Source: an uncultured Candidatus Saccharibacteria bacterium (GTDB lineage: Bacteria > Patescibacteriota > CALEFQ01). From it: a DNA stretch of 64,000 nt. Location of the stretch: contig OZ246404.1 in the NCBI GenBank assembly GCA_965230955.1, positions 685,426 through 749,425 of the forward strand, read 5' to 3'. A program made the translations under genes and the position numbers. Under the pieces are notes generated by a model, which saw only the letters and a program-made list of their open reading frames with translations, did no database searches and was not told the DNA's origin. This document shows, in pieces, positions 330 through 61,778 of this stretch (positions within the stretch are counted from its first letter, which is position 1; each line of letters starts with the position of its first letter).

Positions 330-760
330 GTACCCAAGAAGACCTGTAAGCCGAGTTCTGTTCCCGCCATAGGCGGGAGACGACCATCTATCTGGGCCGG
401 GCATTACTGCTCGGCTCAAGCTGTCGGATTCTATACCCGAAGGCACAGAGTCCACCGACATTACACCAGGTAGGGTTTGTAGCCGGCGGCTGTCACCAGC
501 CGCGGAGAGGGGTCTTACTCCCTCACTTTTCATCCTTACCCTGTGCCAAATGGCACAAGGCGGTATAGTCTCTGTTACACTTTCCCTGGGCTTCGCCGTT
601 TAAAAAGGCATATGCACTTTTCAAATGACTGCTCCCGCTGGACGTTATCCAGTACCACTTTCACCCTTAATCGGGTTTGGTGCTCGGACTTTCCTCTCCA
701 CCCAGCCCCAAAAAGGAGCGTAGTGGAGCGATCATCCGGTAATCTTGGGTAGTGAAATCA
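330..760 (-). ncRNA. rnpB: RNase P RNA (bacterial type A-like)
   Basis: The minus strand contains GAGGAAAGUCCGAGCACC (P4 5' strand; E. coli has GAGGAAAGUCCGGGCUCC). It also has AAGGGUGAAAG (P10/11 region), ACAGAGA and ACAGAACUCGGCUUACAGG (P4 3' strand; E. coli has ACAGAACCCGGCUUAUCGG). These are in the correct order and spacing. Boundaries are approximate. Confidence 0.75.
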
Positions 761-834: not shown

Positions 835-1509
835 TTATTGGGGCGGAAGCTTGATCTTCGAGCCGAAGAAAAGCTTCAGCTCTTCGGCGGGAGTACGCCC
901 TGTTTGAAGCGGTCCCCCGCACGGCTCGTAAAGAAGCTGTGCTAATTCCTCTTCCGCACCGGCTTTCTTTTGAACGATTTTCCAATCGTTCATTGCCCTT
1001 TCTGTCGCTACCTTTTTACAAGGAGGCTGCATAAGGGCAATTTGCTCCAGATTGGAATAAACGAATTCGCACTCGTAACAATCCAATCCCAGGAAGAGCA
1101 TAGTCGATTTCCGCACTAAATCGACAAAAATTTCCTGATCTGCTGGCAACGAAGATCTGCCAAGGAAAAAAATGGCATCGGTCAGCACCGAACTCCAATG
1201 GTTGTTGTCGGGATGGTCACCCGCGTACCTCGGATCCACTGGAATATTGTGCTCCAAACTTTCTTCGACGAGATAGCGAATTCCCCGGAAATCATCCGAT
1301 GTCTCCACCATTTTTTTCGCGGCCTCCAAAGCCATGATTGGCTTGGTTTGACCGACCAAATTCTGAACATTTTCGAACATCGGATCGGTTTCTTCAAGCA
1401 TCTCCTGCTCAGACTCCGGAGAGTCCGGCATGACGGAGAGCCGATCTTCGGCAGACGCAAAACCCACAAAACAAGCACTCATCAAAATGACCCAAATATA
1501 GAACCGCAT
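835..1509 (-). CDS. Hypothetical secreted protein. The signal peptide is MRFYIWVILMSACFVGFASA.
   Basis: Long ORF. I placed the start at the internal Met, which gives a signal peptide. A sigma70-like promoter lies just upstream. Confidence 0.6.
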   Translation of the reverse strand: MRFYIWVILMSACFVGFASAEDRLSVMPDSPESEQEMLEETDPMFENVQNLVGQTKPIMALEAAKKMVETSDDFRGIRYLVEESLEHNIPVDPRYAGDHPDNNHWSSVLTDAIFFLGRSSLPADQEIFVDLVRKSTMLFLGLDCYECEFVYSNLEQIALMQPPCKKVATERAMNDWKIVQKKAGAEEELAQLLYEPCGGPLQTGRTPAEELKLFFGSKIKLPPQ

Positions 1510-2134: not shown

Positions 2135-3842
2135 TGGTGCGTATATCTAAAATATTTAATTGAAGCTCTCTATTCCCATTCCATTCGTTGGCCTCAAGCT
2201 CGTAGGCCACATCGACAGTGTCCTGGAAATTGATCCGATTCACCATTTCCCCGAAACCGAAAGCAATGGCCGGAATAACATTGGCCGGAGCTTCCGCCGA
2301 GCGCAAATCAAGTTTGAGATGTTTTCCCTGCTTACCCACCGCTCTCACGCCGGCCACCAATAATTGCTTGGTGGCAAAACGAGGCTTTTCATTGGCGAAA
2401 CCATGCGGCTCAAAAACCTTCAAGGCATCGTGCAATTCCCAATTAATCTGATCCGGCCGCAAAACGGAATCGATCGCCAGCTCACTGCGCAAATCATCGG
2501 GGGCTAATTTTTTCTTGGCCACCGCCTTGAGCCGGCGGGCGAAACTATCAAGATTCTTGTTCGGTACCGTACAACCGGCGGCCTGAGAATGGCCGCCATG
2601 TTTTTCCAGCAAATCATCACACATTCGTATCGCTTCGATAATATTAAATTTGGCGGTACTGCGCGCCGAGCCGACACTGAAAGTCGCCTTTTTTTCCAAA
2701 ATTAACACCGGCCGGGCGTGGCGTTCGCACAGCTTGCCGGCAACCAAACCAACCACACCGGAAGGCCAGTTTTCGCTATAAGCCACCAGGAGGGATTTCT
2801 CATCGGTCACATCCCCGATCTGCGTTTCCGCCTCTTTCATGAATTTATCGGTAATCACTTGGCGCTGGCGATTGATCAAATCCAATTCCTGGGCCAAGGC
2901 CAAAGCTTTTTCCCCGGAATCGGCCATCAGCAAATCAAAAGCTATTTGGGAATGCTTGAGACGGCCGGCGGCATTCAGCCGCGGACCGATACGAAAACCG
3001 ATATCATAAGTGTCCAAATCCTGAAGATCAACTTGCGATTTTTCCATGAGCGAACGTAACCCGGTCCGTTTGGTTCGCGCCAGCACTTGCAAACCGTATT
3101 TCACCAAGGTGCGGTTTTCCCCGATAATCGGCGCGCAATCGGCCACGGTGCCCACCGCCACCAAATCAAGATACCATTTTTCCGACTGGGCTAATTTTTG
3201 TCCGGCCGGCAATTTGGTCTTGAGCGCTTGAATCATTTTAAAAGCCACACCGACACCGGCTAATTGTTTGAAAGGATATTTGTCGTCTTGGCGCGAAGGA
3301 TTGATGACCGCATCCGCCGCGGGAATTTTATCCGGCACGGTATGATGATCGGTGATTACCACGTCCATTCCCAGTTTTTTGGCCAGGGCCACCTCGGTAA
3401 TATTGGTAATTCCGCAATCCACGCTGACGATCAAATTAACGCCATCCGCCTTAAACTTTTTGATAGCTTCTTGATTGATACCGTAGCCCCCTTCTTGCCG
3501 GGACGGAAGAAACACACCTACATCCGCTTTGAGTCCTTTGAGGACATCAAACAAAAGAACGGCGCCACTGACGCCATCGGCATCATAATCGCCGTGGATT
3601 AATATTTTTTCCTTTTTGGCCAGTGCTTTTAAAATTCGCGCCACTCCCCGATCCATATCTTTCATCAGAAAAGGGTCGTGCAAATCCTGTTCGTAATCCG
3701 GATTGACAAATTCATCCACCAGGGCCTGCGTTTTGATTCCACGATTAAAAAGCAACTGCGCCACAATTGAAGAATACTCTGGAAATTTCTTCAGAAATTC
3801 CCGCGGGACAGCCGGAGCGATTTTCCAATCTTGATTTAACAT
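2121..3842 (-). CDS. recJ: Single-stranded-DNA-specific exonuclease RecJ
   Basis: DHH motif HGDYDADGVSG and a DHHA1 domain, about 570 aa. Confidence 0.85.
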   Translation of the reverse strand: MLNQDWKIAPAVPREFLKKFPEYSSIVAQLLFNRGIKTQALVDEFVNPDYEQDLHDPFLMKDMDRGVARILKALAKKEKILIHGDYDADGVSGAVLLFDVLKGLKADVGVFLPSRQEGGYGINQEAIKKFKADGVNLIVSVDCGITNITEVALAKKLGMDVVITDHHTVPDKIPAADAVINPSRQDDKYPFKQLAGVGVAFKMIQALKTKLPAGQKLAQSEKWYLDLVAVGTVADCAPIIGENRTLVKYGLQVLARTKRTGLRSLMEKSQVDLQDLDTYDIGFRIGPRLNAAGRLKHSQIAFDLLMADSGEKALALAQELDLINRQRQVITDKFMKEAETQIGDVTDEKSLLVAYSENWPSGVVGLVAGKLCERHARPVLILEKKATFSVGSARSTAKFNIIEAIRMCDDLLEKHGGHSQAAGCTVPNKNLDSFARRLKAVAKKKLAPDDLRSELAIDSVLRPDQINWELHDALKVFEPHGFANEKPRFATKQLLVAGVRAVGKQGKHLKLDLRSAEAPANVIPAIAFGFGEMVNRINFQDTVDVAYELEANEWNGNRELQLNILDIRTNVKE

Positions 3843-3982: not shown

Positions 3983-4052
3983 AATTCAAAATGCATAATT
4001 CATAATGCAAAACTACTAATCCAGATTATGCATTTTGAATTTTGAATTATCA
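3983..4052. repeat. Inverted repeat ttcaaaatgcataat / attatgcattttgaa (family E, TGCATTTTGAATT)
   Basis: Perfect 15-bp arms with a 26-nt spacer. A related motif occurs at 22017-22050. Confidence 0.6.
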
Positions 4053-4053
4053 A

Positions 4054-4851
4054 TTATTTCGGCACTTCTATGTCCGGCACGTATTTTTTGTATATCCTTT
4101 GCAAAGTACCGTCGTGCTTTATTTCATCAAAAGCATCTTGCCAATCAGCCGCTATTTTTGGGTCAGTCCCTTTTGATACAGCAATGTAAAACTCGGTTTC
4201 CAATATTTGATACAGAGACTTGATCTCGTCCGGTGAATAGCCGGCATCTTGGACTAAATTACTCACGGTCATGTCGGTAAAAACCGATAAATCTGCTTTC
4301 CTGTCGATTAATTGACGCACATCTTCCTGGGGATCGGTGAAACTTTGTAAATTAGTAAAACCCTGATCTCTGAGATATTGCTCGGTAAACCAAGAAGAAC
4401 AAGTCGCGATCTTGGGCACTTTTTTGGCCTGCGCCAAATCACCGATTTTTAGATCCGAATCGCGGTGAACGTAAAAATATGTTCGATTACGGCCCAGTGG
4501 GCCGACCCAATTAAACAAAGTCTCGCGCTCAGCCGTCCGCTCCGTGCTGAAAAGAATCGTATTGGGATTTGTTTTCGCTTGCGCGTAGGCCTCATCCCAG
4601 GGCAAAAGCGCCAGATCGTAATTACGCACCTCGAGTCGCTTCATGATCTCGGTCACTATCTCCGTCGCCAGGCCGGAAATCCGACCATCTTTTTCGCGAT
4701 AAGTGATCGGGGGATACTCTTCGGTCAGCAGTGTCAATTTAACTTCGCTCACGGGCCGTGTTTTTACGGCAGCAAAATATATCCCCAAGCAACCGGCGAC
4801 GATCACCATCAGCACCATGGCGATAATAAATTTCTTCATTTTGGTTAGCAT
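4054..4851 (-). CDS. Family-3 solute-binding protein (amino-acid ABC transporter or sensor type) with an N-terminal TM/signal segment
   Basis: N-terminal hydrophobic segment. The architecture is that of a periplasmic binding protein (SBP_bac_3-like). Confidence 0.6.
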   Translation of the reverse strand: MLTKMKKFIIAMVLMVIVAGCLGIYFAAVKTRPVSEVKLTLLTEEYPPITYREKDGRISGLATEIVTEIMKRLEVRNYDLALLPWDEAYAQAKTNPNTILFSTERTAERETLFNWVGPLGRNRTYFYVHRDSDLKIGDLAQAKKVPKIATCSSWFTEQYLRDQGFTNLQSFTDPQEDVRQLIDRKADLSVFTDMTVSNLVQDAGYSPDEIKSLYQILETEFYIAVSKGTDPKIAADWQDAFDEIKHDGTLQRIYKKYVPDIEVPK

Positions 4852-7388: not shown

Positions 7389-7963
7389 TAATATTTTATC
7401 TGCTCGACAGCTTTCTCCATTAACTTCACATTCAGCTGGCCCATTTCCGCATTATATTTCTTGGTGAAAAAATCGCCGACCACTTTTTTCAGCACCGTGG
7501 CATCAATAAAATTAATGGCTCGAACGGCGGCGGCCAAGACCGCCATATTGGGCAAATTTTTTCCCAAAGCGGCTCGGGCGATGGGCGAAGCGTCGATAGT
7601 CGCCGCTCGGCCTCGGAATCCCAATAAAGTTTTTATTTCACCGGCCGAACGATTATCATTCACCACCAACCAGCCGTTATCATTTAAACCGGCGACCACG
7701 TTTTCGGATTTGAGCAGCGAAGCATCGATGACCATTACCGTCTGCGGACGATAAACCAGACTGTGAATTTTGATGGGCGCCGATGAAATTCGCACAAAGG
7801 TTTGCATCGGGGCACCGGTCCGCTCCGGACCATAGGAAGGAAAAGCCTGGACAAACCGGCCACACCTAAATGCCGTCTCAGCGATCATCTGAGCGGTAGT
7901 TTCCGCGCCTTGTCCGGCGCGCGCGTGGATTCTAAGTTCGTATAGAAATGCCATCTGGGTCAA
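7388..7963 (-). CDS. porG: Pyruvate:ferredoxin oxidoreductase gamma subunit
   Basis: POR gamma (CoA-binding) domain, first gene of the por cluster. Confidence 0.8.
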   Translation of the reverse strand: MTQMAFLYELRIHARAGQGAETTAQMIAETAFRCGRFVQAFPSYGPERTGAPMQTFVRISSAPIKIHSLVYRPQTVMVIDASLLKSENVVAGLNDNGWLVVNDNRSAGEIKTLLGFRGRAATIDASPIARAALGKNLPNMAVLAAAVRAINFIDATVLKKVVGDFFTKKYNAEMGQLNVKLMEKAVEQIKY

Positions 7964-8022
7964 AAGTCAAAGGTCAAAAGTAAAAAGTTAATGATTGTAC
8001 TTTTGATTTTTGACTTTTTACC
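7957..8022. repeat. Palindromic heptad-repeat element, family A (GTCAAAR)
   Basis: Sequence gtcaaaagtcaaaggtcaaaagtaaaaagt ... actttttgatttttgactttttac. Confidence 0.7.
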
Positions 8023-11369: not shown

Positions 11370-11446
11370 TGGTCTTTAGTCGTTAGTCTTTGGTCTTTAG
11401 ATTAATCGAGAAAAGCTAAAGACTAAAGACGAAAGACTAAAAGATC
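11370..11446. repeat. Palindromic heptad-repeat element, family B (TCTTTRG)
   Basis: Sequence tggtctttagtcgttagtctttggtctttag ... ctaaagactaaagacgaaagactaaaag. The right arm overlaps the gpmI stop codon. Confidence 0.7.
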
Positions 11447-13046: not shown

Positions 13047-13105
13047 GAGTCTTTGGTCTTTAGTCTTTGGCTAACGACCAAAGAATAAAAACCGCTGACC
13101 AAAAA
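13047..13105. repeat. Heptad-repeat element, family B
   Basis: Sequence agagtctttggtctttagtctttggctaacgaccaaagaataaaaacc. Confidence 0.6.
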
Positions 13106-14444: not shown

Positions 14445-14506
14445 TTGTCTTTAGTCGTTAGTCTTTAGTCTTGGGCTAACGACCAAAGACTAAAGACCAA
14501 AGACTT
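14445..14506. repeat. Palindromic heptad-repeat element, family B
   Basis: Sequence gtctttagtcgttagtctttagtcttgggctaacgaccaaagactaaagaccaaagac. Confidence 0.7.
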
Positions 14507-15698: not shown

Positions 15699-15732
15699 AT
15701 TGTTACTTGTTCCGTGTTACTTGTTACTTATC
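15699..15732. repeat. Heptad tandem array, family C (TGTTACT). It is a half-element that overlaps the gap 3' end.
   Basis: Sequence tgttacttgttccgtgttacttgttactta. It encodes the C-terminal ...ISNK of GAPDH. Confidence 0.55.
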
Positions 15733-16751
15733 TTTTCCGCCATCTCCACCAATCGGACCGAATAAGCCCATTCGTTATCATACCAGGCCACGACTTTAGC
15801 CAGATTTCCGCCAACCACTTTGGTAAAAGGCAGGTCGACGATTGACGATTCGGTCGATCCGATGATATCGGAAGAAACAATATCATCATCCGAAACGGCG
15901 AGGATGCCTTTCATTTTTCCCTGAGACGCCGCCGTCAGCTTGGCGTTAATTTCCTCTACGGTCGTATCTTTTTTCAGAACCATGGTGATGTCGGCAATCG
16001 AACCGCAGATGACCGGAACACGAATCGCCGTCCCGTCAAAAATTCCTTTCAATTCCGGAATCGCTTTCGTCGTCGCAATCGCCGCGCCGGTACTCGAAGG
16101 AGCGCTATTGGCCGCGCCGGCCCGTCCCCGACGATGGTCTTTTTTGTCCGGCCCATCAACCAATAATTGAGTCGCCGTGTAAGCGTGGGTCGTCACCATC
16201 ATTGATTTGGCCACGCCGAATTCATCGCACATAACCTTCATGACCGGAGCAATGCAGTTCGTCGTACACGAAGCGTTGTCGATGATTTTTTCGCCCCGGT
16301 ACTCTTCGTCATTTACTCCTCGGATATAAGTCGGCACCGGGTCTTTTTCATTGGAAGGCGCGGACAACAAAACTTTTTTAGCTCCGGCTTTTAGATGCAA
16401 ATCCATGTCGGCCGCTTTGGTAAAAACACCGGTGCATTCCAGAACCACATCAACCCCGAGTCTACCCCAAGGCAGTAGAGCGGGATCTTTTTCGCGGAGC
16501 ACTTTAATTTTTTTGCCGTCGATGACCAGATTATCCCCGTCCACTTTGACCGACTTGTCATATCGGCCATAAACCGTGTCGAAACGCATCAGATAAGCCA
16601 GGGCCTCTATATCCCCCAGATCATTAATAGCCACAATCTCCAGATTTTTTTTGGCGAAAATTATTTTGCAGGCGGCCCGGCCGATCCGGCCGAAGCCATT
16701 GATCGCGATCTTTAGCATAAAATTACAATTAAGCGATAAGTCAAAAGTCAA
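15717..16751 (-). CDS. gap: Glyceraldehyde-3-phosphate dehydrogenase
   Basis: N-terminus INGFGRIGR and catalytic SCTTNC. Confidence 0.92.
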   Translation of the reverse strand: MTFDLSLNCNFMLKIAINGFGRIGRAACKIIFAKKNLEIVAINDLGDIEALAYLMRFDTVYGRYDKSVKVDGDNLVIDGKKIKVLREKDPALLPWGRLGVDVVLECTGVFTKAADMDLHLKAGAKKVLLSAPSNEKDPVPTYIRGVNDEEYRGEKIIDNASCTTNCIAPVMKVMCDEFGVAKSMMVTTHAYTATQLLVDGPDKKDHRRGRAGAANSAPSSTGAAIATTKAIPELKGIFDGTAIRVPVICGSIADITMVLKKDTTVEEINAKLTAASQGKMKGILAVSDDDIVSSDIIGSTESSIVDLPFTKVVGGNLAKVVAWYDNEWAYSVRLVEMAEKISNK

Positions 16752-16800
16752 AGGTCAAAAGTAAAAAGTGCCAGACTTTTGACTTTTGATTTTTGACCTG
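16738..16800. repeat. Palindromic heptad-repeat element, family A
   Basis: Sequence agtcaaaagtcaaaggtcaaaagtaaaaagtgccagacttttgacttttgatttttgacc. It is followed by the GC palindrome cctgcctgccggcaggcagg (16797-16816). Confidence 0.7.
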
Positions 16801-16817
16801 CCTGCCGGCAGGCAGGC

Positions 16818-17692: not shown

Positions 17693-17725
17693 TAAGTCAA
17701 AAGTCAAAAATAAAAAGTCAAAATT
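17693..17725. repeat. Heptad tandem array, family A (one arm only)
   Basis: Sequence aagtcaaaagtcaaaaataaaaagtcaaaa. Confidence 0.5.
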
Positions 17726-19743: not shown

Positions 19744-19756
19744 ATTTTCTCTTCTT

Positions 19757-19795
19757 AAATCTTATATCTTATATCTTATTTCTTATTTCTTTCTG
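19757..19795. repeat. Heptad tandem array, family D (TAAGATA)
   Basis: Sequence cttaaatcttatatcttatatcttatttcttatttc. Confidence 0.55.
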
Positions 19796-22050: not shown

Positions 22051-22105
22051 CTTAAAAAAAATCTCCCCACCCGGTTACCCAGGCAGGGAGAAAAATTCAC
22101 ACGGT

Positions 22106-25082: not shown

Positions 25083-25142
25083 GTTTTAGTCTTTGGTCGT
25101 TAGTCTTTGGTCTTTGGTCTTTTGTCGCTTGTCTTTGGTTTT
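25083..25142. repeat. Heptad tandem array, family B (TCTTTGG). It overlaps the 3' end of rplO.
   Basis: Sequence tagtctttggtcgttagtctttggtctttggtcttttgtcgcttgtctttgg. It encodes the L15 tail KPKTSDKRPKTKD. Confidence 0.6.
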
Positions 25143-34201: not shown

Positions 34202-34268
34202 ACAAAAAAACTGTAATTGCCTGAGATCGACCTCTCTAAACTGCGCCGTCATTTCAGGCACTTACAGT
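34202..34268 (-). terminator. Terminator- or attenuator-like hairpin immediately upstream of the rplC start
   Basis: A 15-bp stem (actgtaattgcctga / tcaggcacttacagt, one mismatch) with a 29-nt loop. On the minus strand it is followed by a T7 run about 11 nt before the rplC ATG. Confidence 0.55.
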
Positions 34269-34401
34269 TTTTGGGCCGATTCAGTATCGCCCCCTCTCTC
34301 AAAAATTTATAAATAAATCTTTGGTGAGGAGGGACTTAAATCCGTGTCCCCCTACACTCAAGCGCTCAACCATAAGACTTGAACGTTTGAGTGTGGGAGG
34401 A

Positions 34402-34764: not shown

Positions 34765-34926
34765 TCGAGTAATTACTCGATAAAGTTTTAATCAATAAAG
34801 TCTGCCAGCAAAGTAATTTTTCAACTTCCTGGTAGAAAAGGAAATGACGATTCATTTCCCTTCCTTATCAAGAAATTACCCGCGCACCGACCCCGAAGTA
34901 ATTTCGAGCCGGTGCAAGGTGAGTGC

Positions 34927-36135: not shown

Positions 36136-36443
36136 GGTGGTGGTTTTTTGTCACCGCAATTACCCACGCGGTGAATTAGAAACGTTTAAATAAAAAGATA
36201 AGTTAAAATAACGAACTCACGATATCCTGCAATCAATTACTGAGTTTAACAGCCTTCTTTTGAACCGTCAAGAGCTGGACAATATTATAGAGGAGTCTCC
36301 CGGAAAGAGCAAGTTGATAAATCCAAAACATGACATTCGAAGCCCGAAACAATATTCAAATCAAAACCCCAAAATACTAGTATTTAAATGCCGGGATTTC
36401 AGATTTAGAAATTGTTTCGGATTTCGAATTTATGGTTTCGCGC

Positions 36444-38522: not shown

Positions 38523-38615
38523 CTTAGTTAGTCTTTAGTCTTTAGTCTTTAGTCTTTAGTCTTTAGCCGCGTTTTTAGTCTACCGACTAAAGACTAACGA
38601 CCAAAGACCTAGGAA
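38523..38615. repeat. Palindromic heptad-repeat element, family B
   Basis: Five copies of tagtctt, then a loop, then gactaaagactaacgaccaaagacc. It lies between fusA and rpsG. Confidence 0.75.
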
Positions 38616-39088: not shown

Positions 39089-39160
39089 TGGTCTTTAGTC
39101 ATTAGTCTTTGGTCATTGGTTCAGTCGAAAGACGAAAGACCAAAGACGAAAGACCTAAAT
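39089..39160. repeat. Palindromic heptad-repeat element, family B
   Basis: Sequence ggtctttagtcattagtctttggtcattgg...cgaaagacgaaagaccaaagacgaaagacc. Confidence 0.7.
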
Positions 39161-39607: not shown

Positions 39608-39682
39608 AAAAATACTTACCACTGTGAATAATCAGTAGACGTGGCCTAGTTTAACAAAAGAGTTTTGGGACGTCAAGGGCTA

Positions 39683-39720
39683 GATTAAGATATAAGAATT
39701 AAGATATAAGATTCAAGAAG
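39683..39720. repeat. Heptad tandem array, family D (TAAGATA)
   Basis: Sequence tagattaagatataagaattaagatataagattcaag. Confidence 0.55.
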
Positions 39721-40502: not shown

Positions 40503-40590
40503 TTTAAGATGTAAGATATAAGAATTAAGAACAGAAGACGTTTTATCTTACATTTTATTTCTTAAATCTTATATCTTAGAATATCAAACT
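40503..40590. repeat. Palindromic heptad-repeat element, family D
   Basis: Sequence taagatgtaagatataagaattaaga ... tcttaaatcttatatcttagaat. Confidence 0.7.
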
Positions 40591-41202: not shown

Positions 41203-41376
41203 ATAGTCTTATGTTAGCGAGTCTGGAGGATATTTCAAGGAAAATTTAAAATCTAAAAATTAAATTCAAAAGAAATTCACAACATAAAATCTAAAATATT
41301 CAAGTCTTTTTAATTTTCATTTAAAATTTCTTTTTATTTTTTTATTTTAAGCTTTGGATTTCAACCCTATCTACTC

Positions 41377-41405
41377 TTGCCAATCTTCTCTTATTCATAT
41401 ATACT
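41377..41405 (+). promoter_or_regulatory. Sigma70-like promoter TTGCCA, 17 nt, TATACT upstream of rpmB, in an A-tract-rich region
   Basis: Sequence cTTGCCAatcttctcttattcataTATACT. Confidence 0.45.
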
Positions 41406-41444
41406 CTTCTTTGTCCCTATAACTTTCACTAAATATACAAATCT

Positions 41445-41630
41445 ATGTCTCGCGTTTGCTCTATCTGCGGCAAAGGCTCAAAAGTCGTCACTAAGACCGT
41501 ATTTTTGCGTTCGCATACCAATCCCACCGGCAAGAGACGCCAATACCCCAACCTGCAAAAAACGACTTATCAGGGCAAAAAGGTTCGAGCCTGCGTTAGC
41601 TGTATCAAAAAACAGAACAAGACTAAGTAA
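41445..41630 (+). CDS. rpmB: 50S ribosomal protein L28
   Basis: MSRVCSICGKG...RSHTNPTGKRR. Confidence 0.88.
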   Translation: MSRVCSICGKGSKVVTKTVFLRSHTNPTGKRRQYPNLQKTTYQGKKVRACVSCIKKQNKTK

Positions 41631-41682
41631 AAAGTCAAAAGTAGAATTACAAAATTTTTTACTTTTGACCTTCGACTTTTAA
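41629..41682. repeat. Palindromic heptad-repeat element, family A
   Basis: Sequence aaaagtcaaaagtagaattacaaaattttttacttttgaccttcgactttt. Confidence 0.65.
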
Positions 41683-41862
<180 letters not shown>

Positions 41863-41867
41863 TTCCA

Positions 41868-41912
41868 CGCCAATTAAAAAGGTGTGGCCTTTTGGCCACA
41901 CCTTTTTAATTG
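41868..41912 (+). terminator. Intrinsic terminator
   Basis: Sequence aaaaaggtgtggccttttggccacaccttttt. Confidence 0.75.
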
Positions 41913-41918
41913 GCGAAA

Positions 41919-43740: not shown

Positions 43741-43832
43741 GACAAATAACAGGTAAAAAGTAACAGGTAACAAAAGGGATTAATCATTCCAATTTGTGAC
43801 CTGTTACTTGTGACTTGTTACCTGATTCTAAC
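43741..43832. repeat. Palindromic heptad-repeat element, family C
   Basis: Sequence aacaggtaaaaagtaacaggtaacaaaagggattaatcattccaatttgtgacctgttacttgtgacttgttacc. Confidence 0.7.
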
Positions 43833-46334: not shown

Positions 46335-46394
46335 AAAGAAACCCTCAGGGAGGGTTTTTATAGTCTTTGGTCTTTAGTCTTTAGACTCTAGGCT
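46335..46394. repeat. Terminator hairpin (aaaccctcagggagggttt) plus a short family B element
   Basis: On the minus strand aaaaccctccctgagggtttctttt lies immediately upstream of the comEC ATG. Confidence 0.6.
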
Positions 46395-51871: not shown

Positions 51872-51941
51872 AAAATTACATCTTTATGGTGTAACTTTTC
51901 TCACACCAGCTCGAGAAAAAGTTCACTCATTTATTAATTAA

Positions 51942-51992
51942 GTTAAAAGTCAAAGGTCAAAAGTCGAAACTTTTTACTTTTGACTTTTTACT
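51942..51992. repeat. Palindromic heptad-repeat element, family A. It is followed by the GC hairpin gccccgaggtgtctcggggc.
   Basis: Sequence aagtcaaaggtcaaaagtcgaaactttttacttttgacttttt. Confidence 0.7.
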
Positions 51993-52042
51993 TAGTAATA
52001 AAAATGCCCCGAGGTGTCTCGGGGCGCAACTATTATAGTTGT

Positions 52043-53406: not shown

Positions 53407-53796
53407 CTAGGAAAAACAATTTACAATTTTTGGGATGATAATCAGCGAGCCCACCACCGCCGAACCGAGAGCCGCTACCAGGACCCCGCCCGCGGTCATG
53501 TCTTTCATGATACCGACGGCACGATTAAACTTAGGGTCGATATAGTCTAGTAAATTTTCGAGAGCGGTATTTAGCAATTCCAAGGACAGAACAATCATGA
53601 TACACAAACAGATCACCGCCCATTCGACCAGAGTCGCATTGATCAGGAACATGACCGCGATAACTCCCACTGCAGCCACGACTTCTATTTTGAAATTTCT
53701 TTCACTCTTGATGACCGCGCCAATCCCCTTGAAGGCAGATCTAAAACTATTACCGATCGTTCCTTGATTTTTGAAGACCTCTTTATCGTCAGACAT
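53407..53796 (-). CDS. dgkA: Diacylglycerol / undecaprenol kinase, DgkA family
   Basis: Three TM segments and an ELLNTALE motif. Confidence 0.75.
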   Translation of the reverse strand: MSDDKEVFKNQGTIGNSFRSAFKGIGAVIKSERNFKIEVVAAVGVIAVMFLINATLVEWAVICLCIMIVLSLELLNTALENLLDYIDPKFNRAVGIMKDMTAGGVLVAALGSAVVGSLIIIPKIVNCFS

Positions 53797-54217
53797 GGAA
53801 TTGCCGTACTAATTTATCTTGGAGAGTGAACATCTTCTGGGCTTGTTTAAGCGAAACATTCTCGTGCTCATAACCAGCCAGGTGCAGTATACCATGAATA
53901 ATCAACCAAAGGAACGCCCGACTTAAACTGATGTTTCGTTCAGAGGTTATCTTCACCGCCTCATCATGACACAATACAATTTCACCTTGAATTCCCGGGA
54001 CCGAACGCTGGTGCAGATCAAAACTTAGCACATCGGTTGGTTTATTTTTACCGCGGTAAACTCGATTCCAGCGTTTCATCTTGATCCGCCCGACGATAAC
54101 CACACTAACATCTATCGGTTCGCTCAGTTTGAGTTTGCGGATAACCTGTTTGATTTTTTTTATCAGCCAACCGGGCTTCACCCGCGCCGCGGTCAAATTA
54201 GTTATCGTGATTTCCAT
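53789..54217 (-). CDS. ybeY: Endoribonuclease YbeY
   Basis: HGILHLAGYEH. Confidence 0.88.
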   Translation of the reverse strand: MEITITNLTAARVKPGWLIKKIKQVIRKLKLSEPIDVSVVIVGRIKMKRWNRVYRGKNKPTDVLSFDLHQRSVPGIQGEIVLCHDEAVKITSERNISLSRAFLWLIIHGILHLAGYEHENVSLKQAQKMFTLQDKLVRQFHV

Positions 54218-54807: not shown

Positions 54808-55131
54808 CTATTTAGATTCGGGACGAGCGGCATTTTGAGCCAAAGTATGTTTTTTTTCAAGAGCCTTGGGACGACGCATTTGAAAAATGCGTTGCTGGCT
54901 ACGGCGGAACTTATGCATACCGAAGCGACCAAGTTTTTTAAGATGTTCTCGTCGTTCCATAATCATGTTTTTGCGCATGGCCTCTTCTTTCAGAATCGTC
55001 CGGCTCTTGGTTTTCTGATGAAAACGAATTTTGCGGGCACGATAAATATTCCCGCTTTGTTGAAGCTTTTTAGTGAAGCGTCGGATCATGCCTTCAATTG
55101 ATTCCCGATCTTTTCGTTTAATTTCAACCAT
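54808..55131 (-). CDS. rpsU: 30S ribosomal protein S21, with a C-terminal extension
   Basis: Start at MVEIKRKDRESIEGMIRRFTKK. Confidence 0.75.
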   Translation of the reverse strand: MVEIKRKDRESIEGMIRRFTKKLQQSGNIYRARKIRFHQKTKSRTILKEEAMRKNMIMERREHLKKLGRFGMHKFRRSQQRIFQMRRPKALEKKHTLAQNAARPESK

Positions 55132-55331
55132 TAAACTCACCTCTCTTTCAATGCAAGTTATCAAATTAAATTGACCTTTTTAGCAAAGGTTTCGACCAAG
55201 TGATGTGATTCAATAATAATATAAAGGACTTGAAATGTCAAAGGCTTGCGCCTATTTTACTATTCTGACAATCGCCGCACGTTGGCGGATAATTTAAGCA
55301 AACGGCCATCCTACATTCGCTGAATTTTAAG

Positions 55332-55679: not shown

Positions 55680-55725
55680 AGTGGTCTTTAGTCATTAGTC
55701 TTTGGTCTAGAGACTACTGACTGAT
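55680..55725. repeat. Short family B element between the HIT gene and the miaB-like gene
   Basis: Sequence ggtctttagtcattagtctttggtctagagactac. Confidence 0.55.
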
Positions 55726-59866: not shown

Positions 59867-61711
59867 ATGAAGCATCTAGACATTGCTACACGGTCAAGCC
59901 GCGCAGAGCGGATTGATTTAAGGACCTCACGCGTAAAAGAATATTCTACAATTAGAACGCACCACCCCAAGCCGGTGGCGCCTTTTGTTACTCCGGCAAT
60001 TTCACCGGCGACAAAACCCGACCAAACGGCGAAATTGTCTCCCCTGATACCATCGGCACCGAGGAAAAAACAGCCGATCGCCCCCGCCGCCAAACCATCC
60101 TTGTCTGCCAAAAAGACGAAAGAGGTAAAAGACCTCTGGGAAGAGCGCGGATCGGACCATCAAGCCGAGCAAATTTTTTCCAATGAAGAAGTACCCTCCA
60201 AACCCATCCAGATTTTTCCTCAAAAAAAGATAAAGAGCCAAAAGAAATTTGTCCTGGCGATCAAAACCGTTATTTCGGTTTTAATTATTTTCTTACTGAT
60301 AGGCGTCGCCCTGTTTGGACGAGCTTTTTTTACCGGAGCCAATATCTTCAACAACGAGGGTTCTTCACCTTTGGATCAAATTAAGCAACTGGTGCTATCA
60401 AACGATAAACAACTTCAGGGTGAAGCCGATGGCCGAATCAATGTTCTGCTGCTCGGAATGGGCGGGGAAGGCCATGACGGCGCCCTACTGACCGACACAG
60501 TCATGATCCTCAGTATCAAACCAGACACCAAGCAAATGGCCATGATTTCTTTGCCCCGCGACCTCTGGGTCAAATCAGAAAAGTTTGGCTACTCAAAATT
60601 AAACAAAGTAAATTTTTACGGAGAAACGGAAGGCAATAAAGGCGACGGCCCCAAATACACCCGCGATGTGGTCCAAGAAATTACCGGATTGACGATCCCC
60701 TATTACGTGCGCATTGATTTCTCCGGCTTTGAAGATATCGTTAATAGTATTGGCGGTGTTGATGTAAACGTTGAAAACGGTTTTGTCGACAAAGAATATC
60801 CCACTGACGATTACGGTTACCAGACGATAAAATTTGATCGCGGTTTACAGCATCTGGACGGAGAAGCCGCTCTGCAATACGCCCGATCGCGCCATGGAGT
60901 GATAACTGATCACGACCCGGAAAGTCCCGTCAGAGACGAGGCCTCCGATTTCGCCCGATCGCGCCGCCAGCAAAAACTGATTGCCGCCATCAAAGACAAG
61001 GCCCTAACCACTGGTGTCCTCGCCAATCCCCAAAAACTAAACTCTTTATTTGAAGCCTTGGGAAAACACATCAATACTAACGCGCAGATGTGGGAAGGAG
61101 TGCGCCTGTTTGAACTAACTCGAGACTTCCAATTCAATAATGTCAAAATCAACGTCATCTCAAATGAAAAATATCTAAAAGTTTACACTACGCCAGATGG
61201 CGCCTATACCCTGATTCCAGTGGATGGCTTTGGCCAATACGGAAGAATCCAAGAACTGGCTCTGAATACCTTTGATCAAGGCGAAGATCAAAACGGCGCG
61301 AATGAAATCAGCGTGCCGACCGGAGAAGCGCCGCCGGAAGAGCGGACGACAGGATATGACGAGTTGACCCAGGCAGAGCAAACCGCCGCCGAACAAAAGG
61401 AAACCACGGCTACCATCGCCATTCAGAATGGTACAACCACCAACGGGATCGGCGCCAAAGCCGGCAATGAATTGCGTAACAGCGGGTATACGATTGTCGC
61501 CGTCGGCAATGCCGCCGATCAAACCCGCCAGCACACGGTAATCTATGACAACACTAACGGCAAAAAATCACAGCAGCTTCAAGCAATAGCGGCGCAATTC
61601 GAAGCCGATATCATCACCGAAGCCGCCCCAGCCAACAAAGCCGGCGTCAGAGAAAGCGCTGACTTCGTATTGATCTTAGGTGCTGAAAGCGCAGCAAACA
61701 GCAAGATTTAA
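59867..61711 (+). CDS. LytR-CpsA-Psr (LCP) family cell-envelope phosphotransferase with a C-terminal LytR_C domain
   Basis: Motif GRINVLLLGMGGEG...LTDTVMILSIKPD...LPRDLWV, and a proline-rich N-terminus with a TM segment. Confidence 0.85.
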   Translation: MKHLDIATRSSRAERIDLRTSRVKEYSTIRTHHPKPVAPFVTPAISPATKPDQTAKLSPLIPSAPRKKQPIAPAAKPSLSAKKTKEVKDLWEERGSDHQAEQIFSNEEVPSKPIQIFPQKKIKSQKKFVLAIKTVISVLIIFLLIGVALFGRAFFTGANIFNNEGSSPLDQIKQLVLSNDKQLQGEADGRINVLLLGMGGEGHDGALLTDTVMILSIKPDTKQMAMISLPRDLWVKSEKFGYSKLNKVNFYGETEGNKGDGPKYTRDVVQEITGLTIPYYVRIDFSGFEDIVNSIGGVDVNVENGFVDKEYPTDDYGYQTIKFDRGLQHLDGEAALQYARSRHGVITDHDPESPVRDEASDFARSRRQQKLIAAIKDKALTTGVLANPQKLNSLFEALGKHINTNAQMWEGVRLFELTRDFQFNNVKINVISNEKYLKVYTTPDGAYTLIPVDGFGQYGRIQELALNTFDQGEDQNGANEISVPTGEAPPEERTTGYDELTQAEQTAAEQKETTATIAIQNGTTTNGIGAKAGNELRNSGYTIVAVGNAADQTRQHTVIYDNTNGKKSQQLQAIAAQFEADIITEAAPANKAGVRESADFVLILGAESAANSKI

Positions 61712-61778
61712 GATATAAGATGTAAGAAAGTAAATCGATCTTATATTTTATATCTTAAATCTTATATCTTACATCTTG
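61706..61778. repeat. Palindromic heptad-repeat element, family D
   Basis: Sequence tttaagatataagatgtaagaaag ... cttatattttatatcttaaatcttatatcttacatctt. Confidence 0.7.

Follow-up and report, generated by a model that had tools for sequence, protein, structure and literature searches.

Between the genes rpsG and fusA of an uncultured Patescibacterium lies a palindrome assembled from tandem copies of a seven-base unit, TCTTTRG, and its presence in such a place raises the question of what these repeats are and what, if anything, they do within an operon. The element occupies positions 38523-38615 of a 64,000-nucleotide stretch of contig OZ246404.1 (assembly GCA_965230955.1), referred to below as the window, and it is one of eight loci that share the unit and are here called family B. 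An earlier note, made from the sequence alone, had likened these loci to REP/BIME-type elements with an unusual heptad periodicity. According to the analysis reported here, they are on balance probably slippage repeats (GTCTTTR/YAAAGAC) of the type of the short, tandemly repeated repetitive elements (STRRs) and long simple sequence repeats (LSSRs), which are transcribed as intercistronic hairpins and whose orientation is under selection.

Heptamer arrays in the spacers of core operons

A pattern of two TCTTTRG units with up to two mismatches occurs 46 times in the window, against 1.51 matches expected and a maximum of four in 100 shuffles. Together with Tandem Repeats Finder (TRF), which reports period-7 arrays of 3-8 copies at each of the eight family B loci, these matches bear out the tandem heptamers that the earlier note had placed there. 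For period 7, a run detector returned 23-24 strong runs, compared with 0-1 for each of the other periods from 4 to 12. All in all, about 24 heptamer arrays belonging to at least five unit families are spread over the 64 kb (roughly one per 2.7 kb), and they keep to non-coding DNA or to the very 3′ ends of genes: 23 of the 24 lie mostly in non-coding DNA, which accounts for about 10% of the window.

That the elements might be assembly artefacts, a possibility raised at the outset, can be ruled out. Three independent Logan assemblies from different sequencing runs (L126-L128; SRR10083296/92/94) match the window with 100% identity over up to 10.5 kb, a stretch that includes the elements at 39089 and 46361, and the elements are therefore real. 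All three of these assemblies of the same organism stop within the perfect (CTAAAGA)5 run of the rpsG>fusA element, at window position 38537; heptamer arrays thus fragment the short-read assemblies and metagenome-assembled genomes of this lineage.

In the mRNA, which is read from the minus strand at all eight loci, the arm nearest the upstream stop codon consists of GUCUUUR units and the arm nearest the downstream start codon of YAAAGAC units, the main DNA units being GTCTTTG and GTCTTTA. The layout of array, loop and reverse-complement array that had been proposed for every locus is present at five of them, and on the mRNA strand these five fold into hairpins with 20-29 paired positions, z values from −2.4 to −9.1 and no U-tract. 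In the rpsG>fusA element (38523-38615; ΔG −37.8 kcal/mol, z −8.1), the UAA stop codon is followed by 8 nt, about four GUCUUUR-type units, a loop, 5.6 perfect CUAAAGA units and a further 14 nt before the AUG of fusA; the 5.6 copies (38528-38566 in TRF, 100% match) are found on this one arm only. The neighbouring rpsL>rpsG spacer contains an element (39089-39160; ΔG −26.9 kcal/mol, z −5.3) whose sequence is identical in the independent assemblies and whose stem starts 8 nt past the rpsL stop codon, ends 4 nt before the rpsG AUG and is mismatched at every seventh position, where GUCUUUC lies opposite YAAAGAC. The remaining three hairpins belong to the glycolytic operon. The one between pgk and eno (14445-14506; ΔG −32.8 kcal/mol, z −9.1) leaves 5 nt between the stop codon and its stem and 7 nt between the stem and the AUG. 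Between eno and gpmI, the palindrome is shorter than the others (13047-13105; ΔG −22.0 kcal/mol, z −2.4), and its stem is separated by 22 nt from the stop codon and by 9 nt from the AUG. In the gpmI>pfkB spacer (11370-11446; ΔG −20.9 kcal/mol, z −4.8), the stem starts 0 nt after the stop, with the UAG of gpmI incorporated into the 5′ arm, and reaches to 5 nt from the pfkB AUG. Measured across the base of the stem, stop and start codons are effectively 5-31 nt apart.

The other three loci lack the 20-30-bp stem that had been ascribed to them as well. At 25083-25142 there is only a direct array without an inverted arm (8.4 copies in TRF), which ends 6 nt before the secY AUG and, as a CYAAAGA direct array, is fully unstructured (ΔG 0.0); in the mRNA, its AAAGACY units mostly encode the Lys-rich C-terminal tail and the UAA stop codon of ribosomal protein L15 (rplO). 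Two short arrays, each accompanied by a small partial inverted segment, complete the family. The array at 46361-46394 (about three CYAAAGA units in the mRNA) contains the stop codon of a DUF167 gene, and a conserved GC hairpin with a T run (46339-46357) lies between it and the start of comEC. The one at 55680-55725 (about three units, CAAAGAC UAAUGAC UAAAGAC) ends 7 nt before the AUG of a HIT-family gene, and its inverted segment overlaps the UAG of a radical-SAM gene. Taken together, 4-14 nt separate the CYAAAGA arm from the AUG at seven of the eight family B loci, the start-proximal ends read alike by inspection (UAAYGAC UAAAGAC C) at five, and a higher-order variant, TCTTTGG-TCGTTAG, is common to six.

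Overlap with stop codons, as the earlier note had observed, is seen on reading the sequence at gpmI (UAG), rplO (UAA), the DUF167 gene (UAA) and the radical-SAM gene (UAG). Units in which R is A contain UAG and their complement contains UAA, and since 7 equals 1 modulo 3, three units stop every frame. It is clear from the sequence itself that arrays can for this reason overlap or supply stop codons and are otherwise excluded from open reading frames (ORFs). The C-terminal residues and stop codons of L15 (25100-25142) and of the DUF167 protein (46374-46391) are encoded by heptamer units; either the arrays encroached on the gene ends, or the ORFs ran on into the arrays.

The genomic setting of these loci is compact. 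Judged by ribosomal protein S7, whose closest relatives are metagenomic proteins or labelled Patescibacteria, the host belongs to the Patescibacteria; about 90% of the window is coding and nearly all genes lie on the minus strand. In minus-strand order, the operons with family B elements are pgk>eno>gpmI>pfkB and rpsL>rpsG>fusA, to which the gene pairs rplO>secY, DUF167>comEC and radical-SAM gene>HIT-family gene must be added. In the longer operon DUF1653>fba>gap>pgk>eno>gpmI>pfkB, every single spacer contains a heptamer array of one family or another. A Shine-Dalgarno signal was not found in this genome, with GGAG, GAGG or AGGA at −18 to −7 in only 6 of 69 genes, at or below chance, and the leaders (25 nt upstream of the 69 starts) are AT-rich.

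Could the hairpins end or attenuate transcription? Long stable hairpins right after stop codons might terminate or attenuate transcription or make it pause, and thereby set the genes of an operon to different expression levels, and in a second heptamer family of the window, family A, the 3′ arm is U-rich and two palindromes adjoin GC hairpins or terminators. The stems of family B, however, are AT-rich, lack a U-tract and are followed by A-rich sequence, and the polarity of their arms puts the U-rich one upstream, the arrangement least like a terminator. No family B element is among the terminator-like sites, whereas canonical terminators with a GC stem and T run are used elsewhere in the window (e.g. 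22062-22091 and 52006-52025). Moreover, elements separate rpsG and fusA, essential genes that have no promoter of their own. We therefore regard a role in termination, attenuation or pausing as very improbable, and intrinsic terminators, which combine a GC-rich stem with a U-tract, are ruled out for family B, in keeping with the initial judgement that these are poor candidates for operon-ending terminators. The only promoter-like sequences of the type TTGACG-17-TAAACT, with TG ahead of the second hexamer, were found upstream of rpsL and tuf, and given this distribution together with the lack of terminator calls, the hairpins must lie inside transcription units. The initial placement of the elements between co-directional genes of single transcription units hence stands.

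The two promoter-like sites are themselves near-identical (CTTGACG-N17-(TG)TTAAACT; 39648-39676 for rpsL and 36243-36271 for tuf, both on the minus strand) and are kept in a relative of about 77% DNA identity (L001, 9332-9464 and 12626-12771).

Orientation and turnover of the arrays

Family B is not restricted to this lineage. Scanning one genome per species for (TCTTTRG)3 retrieved at least 119 loci; among the matches listed, about 34 belong to Acidobacteriota (chiefly Pyrinomonadaceae and Blastocatellia) and about 46 to Bacteroidota, with the rest including Gammaproteobacteria, Cyanobacteria, Chloroflexota, Nitrospirota, Planctomycetota and several Patescibacteria. The same layout of GUCUUUR arm, loop, YAAAGAC arm and AUG recurs in two other genomes resembling those of the candidate phyla radiation (CPR), one represented by L062 and the other by L009 and L026. 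A scan of metagenomes for GTC-first palindromes returned 117 loci on contigs of 28-66% GC. According to crude ORF calls, 45 of these metagenomic palindromes are located between co-directional genes, nine between convergent and two between divergent ones, and one inside an ORF, usually near the upstream stop codon (median of about 15 nt). A phage origin of the repeat was considered and rejected, as only 16 viral contigs carry a three-unit array.

Across these phyla, the arms follow a rule of polarity: the stop codon is followed by the GUCUUUR arm, and the start codon is preceded by the CYAAAGA arm. GTC-first palindromes outnumber GAC-first ones 4:0 in the window and 14:1 in loci chosen regardless of an inverted partner, i.e. 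18 of 19 together, and by other criteria the ratio is 12:2. Direct arrays behave in the same way, since within 40 nt of a start codon the CYAAAGA sense is found 27 times and the TCTTTRG sense seven times in other genomes. In gaps between co-directional genes, arrays of the CYAAAGA sense lie near the start codon (12 of 27 within 15 nt) and those of the GUCUUUR sense near the stop codon (7 of 12 within 22 nt). Orientation is thus clearly non-random, and the arm that faces the start codon is A/C-rich and unable to pair with itself. Family A palindromes are likewise GTCAAAA-first without exception (7:0). Among palindromic heptamer families other than B in about 2 Mb of loci, the 5′ arm is G+T-rich in 26 of 36 cases (p = 0.011; G 64 versus C 34), a polarity that is the same on both strands.

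An orientation rule of this kind points to a constraint at the level of the transcript or of translation, which bears on whether the elements act as DNA instead, for example as iterons, as sites for nucleoid proteins or cruciforms in replication and chromosome structuring, or in the manner of promoter UP elements. The palindromes are symmetric and show no bias between sense and antisense folds, a family C array directly adjoins the −35 hexamer of the rpsL promoter, TTGAC is contained in the units of family A, and heptamer repeats near promoters affect the action of NtcA and LexA in Nostoc (bioRxiv 10.1101/2022.06.06.494920). Yet both the orientation rule and the depletion of the palindromes between divergent genes point to constraints on the transcript, a 7-bp period does not fit the helical repeat, and no candidate binding protein was identified, all of which leaves action at the DNA level extremely improbable.

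How fast do the arrays change? One comparison is with a syntenic relative represented by L001-L003, whose S7 is 85% identical and whose DNA is about 77% identical to the window. Its rpsG-fusA spacer keeps a family B hairpin with different copy numbers (ΔG −24.7 kcal/mol, z −5.5). Its rpsL-rpsG spacer has moved on to a derived unit in L001, GTCTATA, with arms that no longer pair; within this spacer, the 5′ arm has two units in L001 and four in the near-identical strain L002. Between a ferredoxin-like gene and rpmB, the window has a family A palindrome and L001 one of family D, and in the spacer between the beta-lactamase-fold gene and the MGDG-synthase-like gene, L001-L003 retain only remnants. 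In the more distant L005 (S7 72% identical), the orthologous spacers are 24 and 19 nt long and contain no arrays. The comparison of orthologous spacers proposed at the outset hence shows a close relative that keeps the arrays with other copy numbers and units, and a distant one without them. Positions are kept and units and copy numbers are replaced; the arrays therefore persist at fixed positions with fast, slippage-type turnover, and pairing between the arms is not strictly maintained.

Two inserts were seen in the same relative. The gap between the ferredoxin-like gene and rpmB is about 280 bases longer in L001 (L001 6194-7189 versus window 41203-41918); the additional sequence is rich in GC and apparently structured, and it could represent a small RNA gene or a remnant. 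In L001, the M50 peptidase and hydrolase genes are also separated by an insert of 732 nt.

Orthologous spacers also speak to the idea of non-autonomous mobile elements resembling MITEs or REPINs, in which one founder palindrome per family would have been copied in trans by a transposase or HUH nuclease. Such copying could account for the same unit and the shared TCTTTGG-TCGTTAG variant at six of the eight loci, for the single fixed arm order of each family and for the similar start-proximal ends at five loci, and occurrence in many phyla and in genomes of 28-66% GC suggests horizontal spread. When the elements are compared by eye with the empty L005 spacers, however, neither target-site duplications nor conserved non-repeat termini are seen, and a Pfam scan of 50 ORFs of the window found no gene for a transposase, RAYT or other HUH nuclease, nor for a Csp, RNase III or S1. 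In addition, close strains differ by slippage-type polymorphism only, and units mutate gradually within a single array of a Marinilabiliaceae locus (L078, described below). Mobility of this sort is quite improbable. The TCGTTAG variant was also tried as a marker of common descent and proved not to be decisive, as it is the commonest variant in unrelated phyla, too.

The reading we favour, slippage repeats with selected orientation, can be put as follows. Replication slippage lengthens, shortens and homogenises the arrays, with the two arms changing largely independently, as the two versus four units of L001 and L002 and the perfect 5.6-copy run on one arm only show. Given both arms, a hairpin of 20-29 pairs without a U-tract can form in the RNA or in either DNA strand. 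This hairpin would loop out the inserted repeat, such that stop and start codons stay effectively 5-31 nt apart, a distance resembling the element-free spacers of 19-24 nt in L005. With stop and start held close by the hairpin, expression of the downstream cistron would be preserved or modestly modulated. The stem could in addition serve as an intercistronic exonuclease barrier or processing site. Selection would act mainly on orientation, that is, on which arm faces the start codon, rather than on perfect pairing. That the elements are passengers, either tolerated or with a weak modulatory effect, is more likely than that they are dedicated regulators.

Several observations weigh against this reading. 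First, an RNA hairpin under selection might be expected to favour the sense strand, and the 13 palindromes of the window show no sense-strand signature: G·U pairs number 18 in the sense and 26 in the antisense fold, and in 8 of the 13 it is the antisense fold that is more stable. Nor do the two strands differ in 51 family B palindromes between co-directional genes, with mean ΔG values of −30.2 for sense and −29.6 for antisense (p = 0.38). Second, covariation between the arms is weak. At the variable R/Y position, 114 palindromes have 91 A-U, 68 G-C, 52 G·U and 38 A·C pairs, i.e. 159 Watson-Crick versus 90 G·U or A·C combinations, and the resulting odds ratio of 3.1 (p = 2e-5) may be inflated by the choice of folding register. 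Third, the orthologous rpsL-rpsG hairpin of L001 has decayed (z −1.4). Fourth, slippage by itself leaves unexplained why the same unit and the TCGTTAG variant are found at eight loci and in many phyla, and it leaves the origin of the inverted arm unexplained. Lastly, co-transcription, folding in vivo and an effect on expression are all deduced.

Further comparisons of the two arms were equally negative. The idea that the start-proximal arm is longer, as a free landing pad would be, gave a non-significant 7:3 split on reading the loci, and the consensus is by the same means kept equally in both arms. Translational coupling by a terminating ribosome that unwinds the stem was likewise considered. 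Given the ribosome footprint, a stem that starts 5 nt or more past the stop codon is at or beyond reach; this kind of coupling is doubtful, with four of the five hairpin stems starting 5, 8, 8 and 22 nt after the stop.

Known heptamer repeats and a cold-shock protein ligand

Heptad periodicity, which the earlier note had called unusual, turns out to be the defining feature of a known class of repeats, comprising the cyanobacterial STRRs, the LSSRs and the TAACTGA repeats. The elements of the window are a new cross-phylum member of this heptanucleotide STRR/LSSR class, with an unusually high density in the operon spacers of a Patescibacterium.

Among filamentous cyanobacteria, in which they are common, STRRs form hairpins of 7-bp units between the co-transcribed genes hupS and hupL and are also found in nif intergenic regions (PMC2670836). 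Their function is unknown, with transcript stability or translational coupling having been suggested (PMC2670836), and the phrase ‘highly variable but structured intergenic regions’ has been quoted for them (Jackman and Mulligan 1995, as cited in PMC2670836). The likeness to the window is considerable: tandem 7-bp units in several families per genome, intergenic dispersal, inverted arrays with potential hairpins between co-transcribed genes, and spacers that are variable but structured between close relatives. Exact (TCTTTRG)3 arrays even exist in a Nostocaceae and a Coleofasciculus genome. In contrast to the heterocystous cyanobacteria, however, the host of the window is a Patescibacterium of the 1-Mb class (approximately), and its elements are placed in core operons (str and glycolysis) whose spacers are short enough for them to touch both the stop and the start codon. 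The original units STRR1-3 (Mazel et al. 1990) reportedly read CCCCAGT, TTGGTCA and CAACAGT, from which the units of the window differ. The window variant GTCATTG is a rotation of the STRR2 sequence so given, and the main unit is one base away from it. Membership applies in the wider sense of the class only, as the original definition is tied to heterocystous cyanobacteria and the STRR1-3 units.

A second relative is the TAACTGA repeat, which lies a few nucleotides ahead of start codons in marine Beggiatoaceae, Cyanobacteria and Bacteroidetes where Shine-Dalgarno sequences are rare, with 169 direct sets and one indirect set (MacGregor 2015, PMC4679880). Shared with the window are arrays a few nucleotides from start codons, one preferred orientation, the rarity of Shine-Dalgarno sequences, a sporadic distribution over phyla and placement ahead of ribosomal-protein genes. 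The window differs in its unit, GTCTTTR, in that most long arrays are inverted pairs and in the coexistence of several families, and it contains no TAACTGA palindromes or arrays. A Marinilabiliaceae locus (L078, around 3520-3640, minus strand) has a single run in which the unit shifts stepwise from GTTATCA over GTTTTCA, GTCTTCA and GTCGTTA to GTCTTTA. As GTTATCA is the complement of TAACTGA, the run links that family to family B by point changes that spread within an array. A second unit-changing run is found further along the same locus.

For LSSRs, i.e. repeats of 5-11-nt units, heptamers are the commonest class and have been attributed to polymerase slippage (Mrazek 2007, as summarised in PMC4679880). 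Here, the common ground consists of tandem units beyond chance length, the dominance of heptamers, an origin by slippage, copy-number variation and the exclusion from coding DNA of units that are not a multiple of three; the difference is that LSSRs are a statistical class without stop/start polarity or palindromic pairing. In Nostoc, TTTTGAA and GACYAAT heptamer repeats near start codons or promoters had modest effects on reporters (bioRxiv 10.1101/2022.06.06.494920). The literature searched contains no report of heptamer repeats or LSSRs in Patescibacteria, nor of tandem GTCTTTG arrays.

The proposed resemblance to REP/BIME elements does not extend to membership of that group. REPs are imperfect palindromes of about 20-40 nt of unique sequence with a conserved foot and are linked to RAYT transposases. 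As with REPs, BIMEs and REPINs, the elements of the window are extragenic palindromes, often just past stop codons, between co-transcribed or convergent genes and seldom between divergent ones, and as co-transcribed hairpins they could stabilise upstream mRNA. REPs lack internal tandem periodicity, however, whereas the window stems consist entirely of 7-nt repeats; no conserved REP-like foot is present, and neither a RAYT nor a transposase was found among the 50 ORFs scanned.

For a factor that would read the repeats, the unit itself offers a candidate. Family B arrays may be tandem sites for cold-shock domains (CSDs), one CSD per heptamer, with a cold-shock protein (Csp) on the first-transcribed GUCUUUR arm preventing or melting the hairpin. 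The level of Csp, varying with temperature and growth state, would then set the structure of the intercistronic mRNA and the translation of the downstream gene. The consensus bound by Bacillus subtilis CspB is 5′-GTCTTTG/T-3′, with strong preferences for C3 and for T2, T4 and T6 (PMC1904285), and the protein has been crystallised with GUCUUUA (PDB 3PF4; PMC7825780). Dissociation constants are 159 nM for GUCUUUA and 158 nM for GUCUUUG and rise to 485 nM for AUCUUUG and 822 nM for CUCUUUG (PMC6467422). The main family B units are exactly these ligand heptamers, the repeat period equals the 7-nt footprint of a CSD, and the positions that vary in the arrays, 5 and 7, are those of lower specificity, with the GTCTATA unit of L001 still keeping T2, C3, T4 and T6. 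Furthermore, in 18 of 19 palindromes transcription reaches the Csp-type arm first, and this arm is avoided beside start codons. A universal trans-acting factor would account for recurrence across phyla, and a Csp has been proposed before as a generic binder of heptamer repeats, one protein per heptamer (MacGregor, PMC4679880). In groundwater, csp is among the top expressed genes of ultra-small prokaryotes (PMC9938205).

Set against this is that the match was found post hoc and that base composition allows only five C-position isomers. Among three-unit arrays of viral contigs, GTCTTTR (16 loci) is rarer than GCTTTTR (28), GTTCTTR (at least 120), GTTTCTR (30) and GTTTTCR (89), and an excess of GTCTTTR over its isomers was hence not seen in this set of viral contigs. 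The other families of the window share period and layout without matching the consensus, with A and C even having the U-rich arm on the 3′ side, and about 200 different heptamer units occur in the loci compared. On reading the arrays, variant units appear at similar rates in both arms. CSDs are of limited sequence selectivity (PMC7825780), and neither the window nor the CPR loci examined yielded a gene for a CSD protein. The ligand, too, is an in-vitro one of a single Bacillus protein for which no natural tandem arrays have been described, the match to the window being one of sequence only. Binding of CSDs to the arrays is thus unlikely, and so is the model in which Csp occupancy of the GUCUUUR arm would decide co-transcriptionally whether the hairpin forms. 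Next to arrays, csp genes were found at 2 of the 119 loci among the matches listed, which equals chance. One csp gene (1057-1245, minus strand) lies about 530 nt upstream of a GUCUUUR-sense array (484-525, minus strand) in Ulvibacter antarcticus (L067).

Further arrays of the window and what the repeats imply

Four more unit families share the window with family B, namely A (GTCAAAA/TTTTGAC), C (ATCTTAT/ATAAGAT), D (GTAACAA/TTGTTAC) and E (TTCAAAA-type), and they contribute eight further palindromes and several direct arrays. Together with the five of family B, this gives the 13 window palindromes considered above, with ΔG values from −19 to −38 kcal/mol.

Unless stated otherwise, the palindromes and direct arrays listed next lie on the minus strand. 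Family A palindromes (GUCAAAA ... UUUUGAC) occur in the fba>gap spacer (16738-16797), ahead of a PFOR gamma-subunit gene, where the 3′ arm ends 4 nt before the AUG (7959-8018), in the ftsA>ftsZ spacer just downstream of the canonical terminator at 52006-52025 (51940-51993), and, with no strand assigned, in the spacer of the ferredoxin-like gene and rpmB (41625-41685), whose L001 ortholog holds the family D (GTAACAA) palindrome mentioned above. The first of these is adjoined by a GC-rich perfect palindrome, GCCTGCCTGCCGGCAGGCAGG (16797-16817), which comes just before it in the transcript. Family C is represented by palindromes in the M50 peptidase>hydrolase spacer (AUAAGAU ... AUCUUAU; 40505-40578), ending 7 nt before the AUG, and, on the plus strand, in the spacer between a LytR-family gene and pth (61703-61777). 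A family D palindrome (GUAACAA/GUCACAA ... UUGUUAC; 43747-43821, ΔG −34.0 kcal/mol) stands between the beta-lactamase-fold and MGDG-synthase-like genes, and one of family E (UUCAAAA/AUGCAUA type; 3983-4057) upstream of recJ.

Direct arrays follow a similar placement. The gap>pgk spacer is taken up by a family D array (AAGUAAC; 15700-15729), which stops 4 nt short of the pgk AUG, and a family A array (UUUUGAC; 17694-17723) ends 9 nt before the fba AUG. Two family C arrays are found upstream of a galT-like gene (AUAAGAU; 19753-19791) and immediately upstream of the −35 hexamer of the rpsL promoter (AUCUUAU; 39682-39719), the latter being absent from L001. A family A array at 2023-2053 lies in frame within the RNase H gene (1721-2134), to whose product it adds KVKGQKSKVKK after the conserved GGARGNPGPAGIGVV motif.

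Searches for known RNAs returned little for the elements. With Rfam 15 at gathering score, the only match in the window is RNase P RNA, and in E-value mode the elements give nothing but sub-threshold matches to eukaryotic miRNA-precursor hairpins, which are noise; the reading as a known RNA family was rejected for lack of a match at gathering score. The RNase P RNA (bacterial class A, RF00010; 331-747, minus strand, 201 bits) is full length, and the crude ORF list has spurious ORFs over the same stretch. No tRNA or tmRNA gene was found in the window.

Three unusually long spacers of 160-310 nt, rpsJ>rplC (34206-34401), tuf>rpsJ (34765-34926) and fusA>tuf (36136-36443), have no Rfam match at gathering score either and may be leader or attenuator RNAs of ribosomal-protein genes; GC-rich hairpins occur in the first two, which are also well conserved between the window and L001. 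A further hairpin, a perfect palindrome of at least 20 pairs (41868-41915), follows adk and is terminator-like on the plus strand. Among the other genes of the window are those for S21 (54808-55164) and YbeY (53789-54217).

Heptamer repeats such as STRRs, LSSRs and TAACTGA repeats have been known since 1990 without an agreed function. To the first reading of this window, the analysis adds a polarity rule that holds across phyla and a unit identical to a published CspB ligand. On the practical side, arrays of this kind can corrupt gene calls through wrong start codons and repeat-encoded C-terminal tails. Should the cold-shock model nevertheless prove true, it would provide a universal trans-acting factor for STRR-type repeats, one that explains why the period is 7 nt and why the same unit turns up in phyla from Patescibacteria to Acidobacteriota, Bacteroidota and Cyanobacteria, and it would tie the level of Csp to the expression of core operons (str and glycolysis) in bacteria that do not use Shine-Dalgarno sequences. 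This is a minimal genome without a Shine-Dalgarno signal in which the arrays stand in the most conserved operons, and any effects on translation or mRNA fate should here be strong and easily read.

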